64,000 nucleotides of DNA from NCBI GenBank assembly GCA_031520405.1, contig GCA_031520405.1_4842.1. One strand, given 5' to 3'. The position numbers and the translations under genes were made by a program. Of the stretch, positions 37,315 to 42,048 are shown one piece after another (position 1 is the stretch's first letter; the number at the start of each line of letters is the position of its first letter). The notes below the pieces were generated by a model, which was given only the letters and a program-made list of their open reading frames with translations, had not been told where the DNA came from and did not search any database. Origin of the DNA: a phage.

Positions 37315-37352
37315 AATAGACCTCCTTTACAAGTCAGATCTATTTATTATAG

Positions 37353-37384
37353 ACAAAAAGAAGCCCGATCTTCCTGATCGGGCT
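37353..37384 (-). terminator. rho-independent terminator at end of tRNA region
   Basis: hairpin gcccgatc-ttcct-gatcgggc followed by U-tract on minus strand. Confidence 0.55.
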
Positions 37385-37617
37385 ATGTTAAACCATCGTG
37401 GGGATGAAAAGACTACTCACAGCAATTTCTAGTATTAGGCGTTTGGGAGAGTGCGTCGGGAATCGAACCCGAAATCGTCAGGACGTTGAAAGCTATTTGC
37501 ATTTCACTTGCATATCCTGCGACTTTCTTAACTTCCTTAACCCCAGATTGTTATGAAGTCGGCATGCACACCTTCTTCATCTTCAGGAAGTCACACTCAT
37601 TATTCTGATTGCTTCAA

Positions 37618-37702
37618 CTGGATTCGAACCAGTGACCTCAGGCACCTTGTTCTCTCGAAACTTTCCTGCGCTCTACCACTCGAGCTATGAAGCAATTTGG
37701 CG
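37618..37702 (-). tRNA. tRNA-like gene, anticodon undetermined (possible pseudo-tRNA)
   Basis: acceptor TGCTTCA/TGAAGCA, D-arm GCTC-GAGTGGTA-GAGC and T-arm ACTGG-TTCGAAT-CCAGT are present, but the 35-nt middle does not fold as a standard anticodon arm. Confidence 0.35.
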
Positions 37703-37706
37703 GAAG

Positions 37707-37795
37707 GTGAAGGATTCGAACCTTCGGGGGCTAAAAGCCCCACTCGATTAGCAGTCGAGTCCCTTAAACCTCTCGGGCAACCTTCCAATTTGGAG
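37707..37795 (-). tRNA. tRNA-Ser (anticodon GCU), type II with long variable arm, CCA encoded
   Basis: acceptor GGAAGGT/ACCTTCC; anticodon stem CTCGA/TCGAG with loop CTGCTAA; variable arm GGGGCTTTTAGCCCCC; T-arm GAAGG-TTCGAAT-CCTTC. Confidence 0.75.
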
Positions 37796-38453
37796 CGGGA
37801 GAGCAGTCAGCTACTGGCCAACCCCTATGGCTCCCGCGAAATTAGGACGGGCTTCACACCCGATTGTGCATTTGATCTGCCGTAGCCCAACTCCCCGCGC
37901 TTATCAGCGCCGATTGGTTAACTGGCACCAGTGCCTTCTGGTTCGATCTCCTGGAACTTTACAGGCTTCGCGCCCGACCATTTCTGGAAGTTGGGGCATC
38001 GTTTTCGATGTGGAGTCACCCCATTTTATACACAGCTGGCTGCAACGCTTACTGTGTTTGGTCTACCACCACGTGCTGGGCCACGCTTGAGGACATCGGC
38101 CATCCTTCCTCAGCTAATCCACGCAGTGATAGATTTGTATCAGAGTGTCCGGTGTAGCTTTCCGTGAGGTGCGCACTACTGTAGCCTCTACACTCTGAAT
38201 TTGGTGGGCGTTACTTTCGTCGGGTTCAGATTCCGTTCGGCTATTGGACGTCGCTCGAGAGAACTTGTCGTTCGCGTACTTCGTGCTTACTTGCTTTCGT
38301 TTCACACCCATTGTTTGTCGTCGGGCGGGGGATTCAAACCCCAATCTTTAGTTTGCGTTTCTTCAAAGCTATCATATGTTCACTTTGAATACTAGACTCC
38401 CCTGGACATCAAAACAGGATCTCTATTCCATCCTGCAAGACCCGACATAATCC

Positions 38454-38529
38454 TGGCGACGATGGCAGGACTTGAACCTGCGACATACGGTTTAACAGAC
38501 CGCCGTTCTACCGACTGAACTACATCGTC
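38454..38529 (-). tRNA. tRNA-Asn (anticodon GUU), CCA encoded
   Basis: acceptor GACGATG/CATCGTC; D-arm GTTC-AGTCGGTA-GAAC; anticodon loop CTGTTAA; T-arm GCAGG-TTCAAGT-CCTGC. Confidence 0.75.
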
Positions 38530-38704
38530 ATTTATTCTTACTTTCGTAAACATTCTTTATTCTGCATGAAGACCCAGGGCAGGATCATAACGATCGTAAG
38601 TTTTTGGATGAGACCCGTTCTTGATGCTCACCATCCGACCTTCCCAACTAGCGCGAATTCTGTTGGAAATCACCACCCAAATATTCTTCATAATATAGAA
38701 CCCT

Positions 38705-38929
38705 TCAACTATGTTTATTCGCTTCGATCGCCCTTAATTGGGCGTCCGCGTCAGCTTTGGTGTCATGTGTCCCAAGAACTTTAGTCTTGGTGTGGTCAAG
38801 GACAACCCACTTATCGCCTCGCTTTTCAACAAACTCAACAATCTCTTTGTTGTCAGTAGCGAGGCCATCCCACTCAGTAAGAAACTCACCGAACGTTTTC
38901 ATCATACTCACCAATTGTTTATTGAACAA
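38705..38929 (-). CDS. hypothetical small protein
   Basis: 74-aa track ORF begins with TTG; internal ATG (MMKTFGEF...) may be the true start. Confidence 0.3.
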   Translation of the reverse strand: MFNKQLVSMMKTFGEFLTEWDGLATDNKEIVEFVEKRGDKWVVLDHTKTKVLGTHDTKADADAQLRAIEANKHS

Positions 38930-38942
38930 CTGGTTTATTTAG

Positions 38943-39086: not shown

Positions 39087-39108
39087 ATTCGATGTGCGCA
39101 CATCGAAT
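39087..39108. repeat. perfect 22-bp palindrome
   Basis: attcgatgtgcgcacatcgaat is identical to its reverse complement. Confidence 0.8.
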
Positions 39109-40082
39109 CCCTTAAACTATCGCCCCATAATTTATTGTGTGACCAACCAAGGTCTCTCAACCCTTTATCCCGTTTGTGCATGATCAGTTCATGCATGCCT
39201 GTTTGTGCGCCTCACGGCAACGCGCTTCTGTGGGTCTTTGGCTTGCACCGTAGCCTCACCACAGGCGTTTATTTTTCCAGGGCTTTCCACTTGCAAGTCT
39301 TAACCATACAGGGATACGGGCTTGCAAGATCGGGTTGGACACAACTTTGATGGCTCTGGTACTAAAGATCCCGCGTCACCCATAGACATGGTTTATAAAA
39401 TCCAGAGCCATCAAAGTTGCAACCAAATGTCACAACTCGCATTCAATGTCTTCGTCACACCGAATACTTGTCCTCTATCGCTCGGACCAAACGAGGCTGG
39501 CCGAAGAAACAAAACACCACTCAACACTAGAGCGAGGATGTGGTTGATAGCCACGATGTAATGTCTCTATCGAAGAGTGATCACACTTGTCAGATGATCA
39601 CTGTTTTGCGAACTCGAGAATACTGCGCCTGTCTCGGGTTTCCCCTTAGTTCGGCCTCTCATTGTTCATCCGGTCAGGGAGCTACCCTTGATGACCAGCT
39701 TATATTGAGATCTTCGCCAGCGCCCACCAGTGTCTAGAATGTGTAGGCGTCGAGGTCTGCAAGGCATTGCCCTATTTCATACAACGCTCTCTCAAGTACG
39801 CAAATCGAAGTTCTCTGGGCTTAACAGGTTCGACCCAACATGTTGTATATCGCCTAACTTACTCATGGGACGGCCACTTCTGTGTACAGACCTTGAGGGT
39901 TAAAAGATATACCCAAAGAACTTCGATTTGCGTTGTGGGGGCAAACCCCCACACGGCTACTTCTTTGACAGGGATTGCTAGCCCTGGGGATTCCACTGTT
40001 TAAGGCTTTATCCCATAACGCCCGAGGCGCGTTTTAACTTATTGAAGCTTGCATAACTGCAAACTGATGCGCTGTGAGACAC

Positions 40083-40209
40083 ATCTTTGAGGGCACTCAG
40101 TGTACAACAGGCTCCGATATTTCATAGGGCATTACTGCCTCGGATTTAAGTTGCCTTTCTCCTGAAACTCCATACAGTCTCGCGTCTGACGCGGAATGCC
40201 CTCAAAGAT
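40083..40209. repeat. 13-bp inverted repeat pair with 101-nt spacer
   Basis: atctttgagggca (40083-40095) pairs with tgccctcaaagat (40197-40209). Confidence 0.7.
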
Positions 40210-40210
40210 A

Positions 40211-40240
40211 TGGAGCCGTTTTAGGGAGTCGAACCCAAAT
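40211..40240 (-). other. tRNA-like 3' fragment (T-arm plus acceptor strand plus CCA) without recognisable 5' half
   Basis: minus-sense GGGTTCGACTCCC followed by acceptor-like strand and CCA; no canonical D or anticodon arm. Confidence 0.3.
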
Positions 40241-40338
40241 GCTTGGCCAGCGCTGACCTTACATCCCATCTGACTTAGGCAACCCACCTCTGCTTACTCA
40301 GGAGCTTATCCCCTTTGGACAGTCAGATATAACGGCTT

Positions 40339-40366
40339 TGGGATTGGAGGAAGGACTCGAACCTTC
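40339..40366 (-). other. tRNA-like 3' fragment (T-arm plus acceptor strand plus CCA)
   Basis: minus-sense GAAGG-TTCGAGT-CCTTC then CTCCAAT-C-CCA; upstream part does not fold as tRNA. Confidence 0.3.
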
Positions 40367-40750
40367 TCATGTACGCTCCTGATTTCTCAGAAGTAGTCTG
40401 CTCCCATCGACCTATTAAGTACACGCTCCGCTCATTGTCGGCGGGAGATTATTAATCACACCCTCCCGCCTATTTTAGTGCGCCGAATTTTGTTATGAGG
40501 AATCGGAAGACCTCACTGGTGTATGGCTATTAAGCTACTGCCAGGAACGTGTTATCATTAGCGATTATTTTTGTGGTCAGTTTCTAAAAACCCGCAAAGT
40601 CACGCACAACGAAAACGAAAACCTGTTTGAGTCCTAAACCTACCTGTCTTGGTCTCACATCGCTATGAGTGGCCAGGACTCAAACAGCTTGCCGTTCAGT
40701 GAGTTAACTATACTTTGTAACCCGTTATTGATAAAACCTTTTATTTTGTT

Positions 40751-40776
40751 GGCGAGGGTGCGGAATCGAACCACAC
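40751..40776 (-). other. tRNA-like T-arm fragment
   Basis: minus-sense TGTGG-TTCGATT-CCGCA with acceptor-like CCCTCGC; no complete tRNA. Confidence 0.25.
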
Positions 40777-41478
40777 TTCTGAGCGCTACCCCGTGTCACC
40801 AATGCACCACCTCACCATCGATTTGCCGGAACTTACGCATCCGGCCTCGTCCTGTCGGTGTTCTTCTGAATCCGGGAAGATCAGCAGGAACTATGAATCA
40901 AGTTAATTCAACCAACAGGAATCCTCTTGTTGCCCTTTGACGCAACATTATGAACCCTCTATGAAGACTCATAATGTTGTCGGCGTGATGGAGATTAGCG
41001 CCCCCGACCTCCCCTTATATGTTGGTGTCGACTTGCCAACAGGGTGCTCTCTGATTCTGAGCTAATCACGCTACAACAGGGAGTTTCGTTCTCCGACGGT
41101 CAAGTGCGTCCACTGACACCAGCGAGGTGGCTATTACGCCTCTATTCACACAAGCCCCTGAGACTAGGGGTTAACTGGTTTTGGGCTGCAAACCCGACTC
41201 CCACTGTGTTATTTCCCTCATGTTTAATACTTTACCGCAGCCCAGCTAATTTGAAAAGTCCTCTCCCCTTTGAGCTACACTGCCCACAGCAGTGCGGACG
41301 AACCTTCACTCAAAACCGGATGCGCCGAAGTGGGCAACTGTTTACCGGACTGATCGGGTAGACCCAGGAGAGAGCAGGTAATCCCGATCAGGAGGATGAG
41401 GAGTAACATCATGTAAAACATAGTGTTCCCTCCCTTCCATGCAACTAACTTTACTACAATTATTTATTGAATAAAGCG

Positions 41479-42048
41479 TTATTTTAACACTTCTAACTTC
41501 ACAACACGACGCAGAAGGTAAACATATTCGCCAGCAGCTTCATGCGTCATATAATGGGTAGAAGGTGTGGAATGATTGTTCTGGGTTTCTTTTAATCCAA
41601 CACGTTCTGCCCAACCATTAATAGAGTTCCCATAGAAACCGATAATCGCGCCAAAATAAATGCGCTGGCTTTCTGGCTCTAAAACATAGTTGACAGTGAA
41701 GCAAATATCAGAACGAATAGACTCCAGTTTCATACCAACACGACCTTCGGAGAATTCGTTACGAACATATAAATGACGGAAACGATCGCGCCGCGCTTGT
41801 GATGATTCTTCCAATTCTTGTCGGAGTGAAGAAGTTACGTCAATATTAAATGAAAATGTTGGATTCTGTAAATCGGAACGGGCCAACTCTAACGCAGATT
41901 CAACAACGCGACGGAAATTGATACTTTTACCTGTCAGGCGTTTCACTTCATCTGTGATTGTTCCAAAAGGGATTTTCGTGGCGCGTTCCCCTTCGTATTT
42001 TGCCAATAAAGGAATAATGTGTTTCATGATTGCTGTGTTAATGTGCAT
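41479..42048 (-). CDS. hypothetical protein
   Basis: 189-aa ORF; box-hairpin promoter module upstream. Confidence 0.45.
   Translation of the reverse strand: MHINTAIMKHIIPLLAKYEGERATKIPFGTITDEVKRLTGKSINFRRVVESALELARSDLQNPTFSFNIDVTSSLRQELEESSQARRDRFRHLYVRNEFSEGRVGMKLESIRSDICFTVNYVLEPESQRIYFGAIIGFYGNSINGWAERVGLKETQNNHSTPSTHYMTHEAAGEYVYLLRRVVKLEVLK

Follow-up and report, generated by a model that had tools for sequence, protein, structure and literature searches.

Transfer-messenger RNA (tmRNA) is universal in bacteria, and the tag peptide that it encodes is treated as a fixed host function. Phage versions of its gene, ssrA, are rare: a 2014 survey of virus genomes in RefSeq (Hudson et al., PMC4131195) names only eight mycobacteriophages, Bacillus phage G and phage DS6A as carriers, with no enterobacterial phage among them. 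The tmRNAs of the Bxz1-group mycobacteriophages and of phage G are complete, while DS6A keeps a partial tmRNA, the tRNA-like domain only, that has been proposed to inhibit trans-translation (PMC4131195). Other stable phage RNAs come from the tRNA cluster of T4, which encodes RNAC and RNAD, stable RNAs of species 1 and 2; what RNAC does has yet to be explained (PMC3014915, PMC9697503). Here we analyse a stretch of 64,000 nucleotides (nt) of phage DNA (contig GCA_031520405.1_4842.1, the window), in which a 4.16-kb region poor in open reading frames (ORFs) is a conserved, modular phage 'stable-RNA island', more interesting than first proposed. Like the phage genes above, one of its RNAs appears to derive from tmRNA, here as the coding half, the opposite half to that kept by DS6A. 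We consider it somewhat probable, judging from sequence and predicted structure, that this tmRNA-derived RNA pairs with host tmRNA, silencing or replacing the host tag.

The window comes from a Kuttervirus (Ackermannviridae; Vi1/CBA120/SFP10 group). Over the 4.16-kb region it shares 99% identity with Salmonella phage BPS6, E. coli phage 4HA11 and SFP10; coverage of that region reaches 80% or more in 87 phage records. The tmRNA-like RNA, unannotated and overlooked in the preliminary description of this DNA along with its complementarity to host tmRNA, lies on the minus strand at about 40700-40440 and comprises a resume region, a tag ORF, a stop-codon hairpin and two covarying pseudoknots. A consensus scan places a sigma-70-type promoter (TTATCA-16 nt-TATAGT, 40734-40707, minus strand) in front of it, with a predicted start near 40700; this near-consensus promoter keeps its sequence and place in Vi01, Taipeivirus, IME250 and others, including those with a different module upstream. 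In siphoviruses that carry the element, a TTGACA-17-TAGATT promoter directly precedes it and the transcript would start at its first conserved base.

The tag frame, read from the sequence at 40562-40530 (minus strand), is GCU AAU GAU AAC ACG UUC CUG GCA GUA GCU UAA, or ANDNTFLAVA followed by a stop. It is preceded by AAAAAUAAUC, a tmRNA-type U-5/A-4 resume context, has no start codon, and has a UAG upstream in frame. The alignment of homologues shows the same arrangement, AUAAAU GCA AAC GAN ... UAA, a tmRNA-type resume site plus tag. What characterizes the mRNA-like domain of a tmRNA is all present: a GCN resume codon without a start codon, the upstream context, a short ORF with a hydrophobic end, and a stop. 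Of 56 unique sequences, 54 keep ten codons plus stop, and the other two frames are open in only 7/56 and 11/56. Variation is greatest at third codon positions, and GCN is the last codon. In the Rfam models tmRNA_permuted and beta_tmRNA, the alignment falls exactly on the resume region and tag, at scores below threshold: 20.6-30.6 bits for RF04321 against a gathering score of 47, and 10-19 bits for RF00023 and RF01850 against 47 and 84, the best tmRNA_permuted score being 30.6 bits (E = 2.5e-4). An Rfam covariance scan of 37000-41700, taken to E values of up to 10, returned only tRNA and tmRNA plus obvious chance hits, with no match to GOLLD, ROOL, YrlA-type (Y RNA-like) or other families.

Downstream of the tag frame, an alignment of 72 sequences defines a structured 3' domain (40544-40440, minus strand). 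It consists of hairpin H5, which holds the stop codon (40544-40516), hairpin H6 (40515-40496), pseudoknot A, in which the H6 loop (40506-40503) pairs with 40486-40483, and pseudoknot B, built of stems S1 (40482-40477/40462-40457) and S2 (40470-40463/40447-40440). Over H5, H6, pseudoknot A and S1 of pseudoknot B, 93.8% of alignment cells are paired, against 25-44% in slid controls; compensatory changes occur in 17 of 24 tested pairs, and none of 500 shuffles matches the observed score. S2 of pseudoknot B covaries among five sequence types. Covariation thus supports H5 and both downstream pseudoknots, and an intramolecular pseudoknot 1 (PK1) of the tmRNA kind was not found. At the other end of the RNA stands a 5' hairpin with 22-nt arms (inverted repeat I5, 40696-40614, minus strand), three of whose 27 predicted pairs carry compensatory double changes across genera (AGUCCU/AGGACU versus GGCACCA/UGGUGCU).

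Using 39020-41280 as query against phage records, we recovered a piece of about 180 nt (window 40448-40624) in unannotated DNA of otherwise unrelated phages, namely HK620, Felix O1-like and N4-like phages, 46-kb siphoviruses, phage 7-11 and Aeromonas phage pIS4-A. A motif scan found it in at least 120 IMG/VR viral contigs (lambdoid, Felix O1-like, N4-like and siphoviruses), with 23 tag variants, nearly all of 10 codons. By megablast, at least 135 of 5426 complete E. coli genomes carry the element, always in the chromosome and never annotated by the Prokaryotic Genome Annotation Pipeline (PGAP); annotation pipelines miss these elements. In lambdoid prophages it sits between the antiterminator Q/pR' and the holin gene. 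Among species-representative genomes true members occur in Enterobacterales only; pattern hits in Advenella, Lysobacterales, Arcobacteraceae and Flavobacterium lie inside long ORFs and were discarded as chance.

What sets the element apart from tmRNA (Rfam RF04321, RF01850 and RF00023), and especially from the coding piece of two-piece, permuted tmRNAs, is everything outside the coding domain. It shares with them the A/U-rich U-5/A-4 resume context, the GCN resume codon without a start, the 10-codon tag AND...A/V-A, the stop codon in a hairpin and the downstream pseudoknots. It is about 190-260 nt long and has no acceptor stem, T arm, CCA end, G3.U70 pair, P2 helix or intramolecular PK1; a GCGG resembling the 5' strand of P4 has no partner in cis, and its predicted pairing is with host tmRNA 75-78. 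Nothing in the element corresponds to the tRNA-like domain of tmRNA (a 7-bp acceptor with G3.U70, a T arm and a 3' CCA). It is encoded by phages of several unrelated families, below Rfam gathering scores and missed by ARAGORN, for which neither the window nor the related loci contain a tmRNA, with one exception: in tmRNA-only mode it reports a 749-nt 'permuted tmRNA' (tag ANDNVFLAVA) in a Felix O1-like contig (L114, 1824-2572), which seems to combine the tag region with the T arm of a neighbouring tRNA. A search for a T arm in cis, from 400 nt upstream to 600 nt downstream of 108 unique elements, found no partner at a constant place or distance, and HK620 has no T-arm module near the element at all. 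The modules that adjoin the element are interchangeable from phage to phage, and all the tRNA-like ones lack G3.U70 (described below; module (e) has U.G or C-G, (d) G.A and (c) C-G). As judged from sequence and covariation, the element is a tmRNA derivative without a tRNA-like domain, widespread and previously unannotated.

In lambdoid prophages and siphoviruses the element is flanked by what we call X modules (HK620, L003 2380-2930; also L136, L006, L008, L139 and L146), which share an interrupted closing helix of about 18 bp, CACAAC-AG-GUAAGAGCAYUG ... CAGUGCUCUUUCC-GUUGUG, around variable inserts. Some of the inserts carry a T arm, GAGGG-UUCGAAU-CCCUA, and the closing helix covaries in Rosenbergiella (GAGCGCA/UGCGCUU); X modules may be processing sites or recombination boundaries. 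A lambdoid 'grand fold', in which the X strands GGUAAGAGCAYUG and CAGUGCUCUUUCC would form acceptor-like and P2-like stems around the coding domain, was dropped as a general model because siphovirus transcription starts at the element and only one X module is present there.

The 5' domain contains an invariant GUUUUCG. Because this conserved motif has no enriched exact complement in cis (CGAAAAC occurs 30 times within 2 kb, against 27 expected), we tried the host tmRNA as its partner, taking E. coli tmRNA as the only target (K-12 ssrA, L147:294-656, confirmed by ARAGORN). RNAduplex predicts an antisense domain at 40625-40572 (minus strand), with complementarity to host tmRNA nt ~54-108/130: the stretch of 45-62 nt that precedes the phage resume codon would form a duplex with tmRNA nt 54-108. 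Three blocks make up the pairing in the window: GGUUUUCGU faces tag codons 3-5 (tmRNA 97-105), GUGAC faces the resume codon together with the -1 triplet (87-91), and UUUGCGG-G-UUUUUA faces 68-81, 13/14 paired, in the 3' half of PK1. The predicted duplex reaches -49.3 kcal/mol in the window (shuffles -34.8 ± 3.3, z -4.4), -41.6 in HK620 (-27.3 ± 3.0, z -4.7), -42.2 in an N4-like phage (-24.4 ± 3.1, z -5.7) and -47.3 in the lambdoid locus L119 (-33.3 ± 3.6, z -3.8), with 0/200 shuffles as low in each case. Across 66 unique 5' domains the best duplex lies over tmRNA 61-101 in 83-91%, with a median z of -3.7; host tmRNA 79-108 beats the RNA's own equivalent segment as partner of the 5' domain in 77/79, and the cofolding ddG is -16.8, versus -8.8 ± 2.1 when the antisense domain alone is shuffled. 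The sequence of the 5' domain differs by lineage (GCGACUUUGCGC in the Aeromonas phage, GUUAGCGAUUGUUUUUAUC in Rosenbergiella prophages), and the variants GCGACUUUGCGG, GCGAUUAUGCGG and GCGUCUAUUUUGC stay complementary to tmRNA 75-91 in different registers. From the end of the duplex to the phage resume codon there are 8-11 nt. The signal comes from the 5' domain only: RNAduplex runs of the whole ~180-200-nt element against tmRNA were uninformative.

Instead of a tRNA-like domain, the element has the antisense 5' domain. We propose that pairing would extend on host tmRNA from the 3' half of PK1 through the A-rich linker and the resume codon into tag codons 1-6, and that the host tag template would be silenced by it. 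Since the duplex stops 8-11 nt short of the phage resume codon, the phage template would come to lie at the usual position of the host template; the distance from PK1 to G90 in E. coli tmRNA is 11 nt. Rescue by host Ala-tmRNA and SmpB would then append (A)ANDNTFLAVA instead of (A)ANDENYALAA; with the HK620 element the tag would be (A)ANEEMYLAVA. Phage tags retain the AND start, which belongs to the SspB-binding region of the tag, and have ..AVA, ..MAA, ..VAA or ..AAA in place of the ClpX degron ..LAA; from what is known of the ssrA degron, such a change at the C-terminus should alter proteolytic fate. With trans-acting antisense small RNAs and sponges the element shares a predicted extended, imperfect duplex with a specific host RNA; it differs from them in having tmRNA as its predicted target and in the fusion of the antisense domain to a replacement template. 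Within the literature open to our searches we met no precedent for such a fusion, and nothing relevant on phage tmRNA-like RNAs, tag peptides, core sequences or antisense to tmRNA.

The rest of the island consists of further structured RNAs. Its minus strand would be transcribed as one or more units from about 41270 to a strong intrinsic terminator identified by sequence scan (37384-37362, minus strand; a 9-bp stem followed by a U tract). We estimate that it holds about twenty small structured RNA modules, which would recombine as cassettes among enterobacterial phages and fall into four kinds: three ordinary tRNAs, at least six tRNA-shaped RNAs apparently without an anticodon, which retain the acceptor stem and in most cases the T arm and are analogous to T4 RNAC, stem-closed modules, and the putative tmRNA-derived RNA with its own promoter. 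The preliminary description, which reported three canonical tRNAs among tRNA-like fragments and long inverted repeats, was right, and the pattern is far from chance. We confirm all five T-arm/acceptor-like sites of that description and add a sixth, at 37609-37694. In the window we counted nine copies of the T-loop motif GKTTCRANTCC, against 0.71 expected (0/100 shuffles reach nine), always on the minus strand; eight copies lie in 37459-40772 and the ninth, at 34103-34113, was set aside as a chance match because it lies inside a 149-amino-acid coding sequence, where it codes for ..KGFDSIA... A looser scan added the T-arm site 38327-38343. G+C content is 48-54% in the region, against 40-45% in the flanks.

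Six tRNA-shaped modules, labelled (a) to (f), and one further RNA, all on the minus strand, belong to the second kind. Module (a) (37598-37444; fold z -2.8) is a tRNA-shaped RNA of ~150 nt with an acceptor, two long arms and a T arm, and 10 of its 46 pairs show compensatory double changes across four genera. Module (c) (40336-40211), recognised by conservation and fold, has 126 nt, an acceptor GCCGUU/AACGGC, two long arms, a T arm, discriminator U and an encoded CCA; it is 92-97% identical across Kuttervirus, Taipeivirus and LHE287, against about 75-85% in its flanks. Both fold as four-way junctions, and both resemble T4 RNAC, which we retrieved and folded for comparison: RNAC is encoded in a tRNA cluster, has 120-150 nt, an acceptor-like stem and a canonical T arm, and carries two long arms where a tRNA has its D and anticodon arms. 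The likeness is one of architecture only, no sequence similarity being detectable, in a class that has no formal definition. Compared with T4 RNAC/RNAD, the window has many more such modules, plus long-stem modules. Stretches of (a) and (c) that look, in sense orientation, like 5' and 3' tmRNA sequence ('GUGCAUGCCGA', 'GGAUGUA') are at chance level, with equal 11-mers elsewhere in the window.

The RNA at 37694-37609 (minus strand) passes the Rfam tRNA model RF00005 at 48.7 bits, yet its 22-nt 'anticodon loop' contains no anticodon: acceptor, D and T arms are normal, and a bulged stem with a GNRA cap replaces the anticodon loop. The arrangement is kept in CBA120 and Agtrevirus, with GAGA changed to GAAA, and the N4-like Shigella phage pSb-1 is 93% identical here. 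Public annotations are inconsistent; SFP10 annotates it as a pseudo 'tRNA-OTHER' (L001 1791-1876). Module (e) (40816-40750), found by its T-loop motif, is a 67-nt tRNA shape without an anticodon arm, made of an acceptor GGUGAGG/CCUCGCC-A and D and T arms; 3 of 21 pairs are compensatory between Kuttervirus and Taipeivirus, and its 3:70 pair is U.G (C-G in cp21), not G.U. IME250 has a gene in its place. It is called 'putative tRNA-Ala' in the annotation of EP75 (L137 1065-1131) and is unannotated elsewhere. Module (f) (41071-40983), detected by covariation, has an acceptor GCGUGAU/AUCACGC, a D arm and a non-canonical T region, with 6 of 25 predicted pairs compensatory over nine sequences.

T-loop scanning also located module (d) (40407-40339), a tRNA-like minihelix with T arm and encoded CCA (AUGGGAG...CUCCAAU-C-CCA), whose T stem covaries in L074 (GAAGG/CCUUC to GGAGG/CCUCC). 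It is absent from Vi01, cp21, IME250 and LHE287, where there is a long-stem module or nothing instead, the former in Vi01 and IME250. Both sequence variants of (d) have a G.A mismatch at acceptor 3:70; some 3:70 mispairs keep alanine acceptance in vivo. Module (b) (38446-38319), from the T-loop scan and folding, has an expanded middle, the acceptor GUCGGGU/GCCCGAC-G and the T arm UGGGG-UUUGAAU-CCCCC, and is conserved in EP75 and LIMEstone1; because only one of its pairs is compensatory, it is the weakest case. ARAGORN and RF00005 recognise none of (a)-(f), and in none of the relatives compared does a canonical tRNA stand where the window has (a), (c), (e) or the 22-nt-loop RNA. The tRNA-shaped modules are presumably cut out by the host's tRNA-processing enzymes, RNase P and the 3'-processing enzymes.

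The inverted repeats noted in the preliminary description are likewise real. The perfect 22-bp palindrome (I7, 39087-39108) lies in a block 90% identical to Limestonevirus, and the 13-bp inverted repeat around 40083/40197 belongs to a long-stem module, I4 (40212-40080, minus strand; fold -44.9 kcal/mol, z -4.5), with 4 of 43 pairs compensatory. Three further long inverted repeats have 22-25-nt arms (39335-39426, 39798-39933 and 40614-40696), the last being the 5' hairpin of the tmRNA-like RNA. The first is module I1 (minus strand, 25-nt arms), with several compensatory changes in cp21, and the second module I2 (minus strand, 22-nt arms, 95% complementary), likewise with several compensatory changes, among them that from GUUCU/AGAAC in Kuttervirus to GUGCC/GGCAC in Taipeivirus. 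Stems of 13-25 bp are likely sites for ribonuclease III (RNase III).

In pairwise comparisons with Vi01, CBA120, Taipeivirus (cp21, IME250), Agtrevirus, Limestonevirus and LHE287, blocks of the island are present or absent independently of each other. Some are 90-98% identical across genera, against about 78-85% in neighbouring coding sequence; examples are 40336-40200 (92-97%), 38203-38134 (98.6%) and 39351-39024 (90% in Limestonevirus). Blocks 38134-38207 and 38076-38122 are 98.6% conserved in Taipeivirus and 82-89% in the N4-like phages S5, Ea9-2, PhAPEC5 and phi G17; we found no convincing consensus structure for 38134-38207. From these comparisons we regard the region as under selection, modular and mosaic, and not junk.

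ARAGORN and Rfam, the latter at gathering score, give exactly three tRNAs, all on the minus strand and each a normal cloverleaf with a 7-nt anticodon loop: tRNA-Ser(GCU) at 37786-37698, tRNA-Asn(GUU) at 38529-38454 and tRNA-Met(CAU) at 39018-38943, the same three that had been folded by hand, with no dense tRNA array. Relatives hold other tRNAs (Gln, Tyr, Trp, Ile) between the same blocks, and the tRNA complement varies. At 37837-37791 (minus strand) alignment to the CBA120/Agtrevirus gene reveals a tRNA-Ile(GAU) with a 39-nt internal deletion, intact in CBA120 according to ARAGORN, which is the only clear instance of tRNA decay in the island. The annotation of FEC14 across the matching region has a tRNA-Ile and no tRNA-Met. 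On the minus strand there is no ORF of 60 or more amino acids in 38930-41479, as had been stated, and the longest there have 45-51. PHROG matches indicate that three small ORFs are probably genes: one of 48 amino acids at the upstream edge of the island (41421-41275, minus strand; PHROG 8415, E = 2.5e-33), annotated in SFP10, CBA120 and Vi01, and two of 74 and 44 amino acids between tRNA-Met and tRNA-Asn (38929-38557, minus strand; PHROGs 3684 and 6110). Plus-strand ORFs of 91-129 amino acids and small minus-strand ORFs in the non-coding part have no PHROG match. HNH homing-endonuclease genes interrupt the island in CBA120 (L002, 3225-3638), SS3, SS9 and Agtrevirus (an insert at 3490-3966 in L014 among them) and are not found in the window; the T4 tRNA cluster likewise contains segB.

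Several observations weigh against pairing between the tmRNA-derived RNA and host tmRNA, and against a template function. RNAduplex permits large internal loops, and 3' control segments also reach a median of -38.8 kcal/mol, for which reason the case for pairing rests on z-scores and the constant target site and not on absolute energies. The duplex is weak in a Felix-like phage (-27.3 kcal/mol; shuffles -20.7 ± 2.4, z -2.8, 2/200 as low) and in 7-11 (-36.6; -31.4 ± 3.4, z -1.5, 13/200 as low), and the family members, being related, are not independent tests. In Ackermannviridae a cis pairing of GGUUUUCGUU with the 5' AACGAAAAGC, where the 5' hairpin has its base, is also possible. The antisense domain can in part form a local hairpin, and kinetics may hinder the invasion of PK1 in a tmRNA that is folded and bound by SmpB. 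The first three tag codons were set by the search pattern, and for that reason we draw nothing from their constancy among the IMG/VR sequences. Synonymous codons, GCU AAU GAU, do occur in the window, Agtrevirus and EP75, which came to light through BLAST instead of the pattern. As to the hairpin base itself, the Ackermannviridae AACGAAAAGC (AACGGCAAGC in the window) resembles the tmRNA target ACGAAAAC. The cis pairing joins 40700-40690 with 40623-40612 in the window and occurs also in L013, L014 and others; in Ackermannviridae only, a near-match CGAAAAG pairs in cis with GUUUUCG. Such a pairing might serve for self-masking or as a toehold, or mark a site for RNase III.

We put forward tentatively, as a possibility, that a 'tag-swap' RNA is encoded by many phages of enterobacteria (Kuttervirus, lambdoid, Felix O1-like, N4-like, siphoviruses): it would dock on host tmRNA and replace PK1 and the template, and host Ala-tmRNA/SmpB would then read a phage tag (ANDxxxLxVA/LMAA) with a C-terminus unlike the ClpXP degron LAA. 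The strongest of the rivals has the RNA act on tmRNA as an antisense inhibitor alone, or as a guide for RNase III: pairing would only block the resume codon or trigger RNase III cleavage, shutting off tagging or rescue, and the untranslated 3' half would serve stability or the recruitment of S1 or SmpB. The same complementarity data fit this, a ~40-bp imperfect intermolecular duplex is a plausible RNase III substrate, and many other modules of the island have long stems; yet an exact 10-codon frame ending in A/V-A plus stop, with its third-position variation (54/56), is left unexplained, as are the resume context and the constant 8-11-nt spacing between duplex and resume codon, and we hold this rival to be rather doubtful. 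More improbable still is a self-sufficient two-piece phage tmRNA, in which (e), (d), (c) or the lambdoid X module would be the charged acceptor piece, base-paired to the coding RNA in the manner of alpha- and beta-proteobacterial permuted tmRNAs. In Rfam it is indeed the permuted tmRNA families that come closest, a tRNA-like or stem-closed module usually adjoins the element, ARAGORN makes its 749-nt call in one Felix-like contig, and (e), without an anticodon arm like a tRNA-like domain, has G1-C72, G2-C71, G4-C69 and A73. The alanine identity pair G3.U70, however, occurs in none of the modules, complementarity between them and the coding RNA was not found, and the neighbours vary between phages, with HK620, IME250, some siphoviruses and N4-like phages lacking them; in siphoviruses the transcript would begin at the element, which leaves no 5' acceptor strand.

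For the island as a whole, the preliminary description had offered noncanonical tRNAs or other structured RNAs, with decayed tRNA genes as the conservative reading. Its first part is borne out by modules conserved across Ackermannviridae genera with compensatory stem changes, and the second fits one element only, 37837-37791. Decayed tRNA genes with neutral spacer would account for that tRNA-Ile homologue with its 39-nt deletion, for Gln, Tyr, Trp and Ile tRNAs that come and go among relatives, and for module (b), almost without covariation. Decay does not explain blocks that stay 90-98% identical across genera where neighbouring genes are at about 78-85%, the compensatory changes in (a), (e), (f), I1, I2, I4 and I5, modules common to N4-like phages, or relatives without a canonical tRNA at the positions of (a), (c), (e) and the 22-nt-loop RNA; comparative data largely refute it, and we think it most improbable. 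For the modules other than the tmRNA-like RNA there is another explanation, compatible with the tmRNA-pairing proposal: the tRNA-shaped RNAs could be decoys or spare parts against tRNA-directed host defences, such as anticodon nucleases, or tRNA-binding enzymes. That the acceptor/T-arm 'elbow' is kept while the anticodon arm is lost or replaced under selection speaks for it, and phage tRNAs have been proposed to counter tRNA-targeting defences (PMC10264068). Anticodon nucleases recognise the anticodon loop, which these RNAs lack, and we rate a decoy function as unlikely.

Should a tmRNA-derived RNA of phage origin pair with host tmRNA and supply its own tag template as proposed, it would amount to a new viral control of ribosome rescue and proteolysis, and to a hybrid two-piece tmRNA assembled from one host and one viral molecule. 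Phage tRNA clusters would then be islands of RNAs that reprogramme host translation, which would also give a lead on T4 RNAC and RNAD. For phage therapy the matter is relevant in that Kuttervirus, Felix O1-like and N4-like candidates are all in use. The 'empty' DNA around phage tRNA genes is dense with structured RNAs that appear to be under selection, which bears on the 50-year-old question of what RNAC and RNAD are for.

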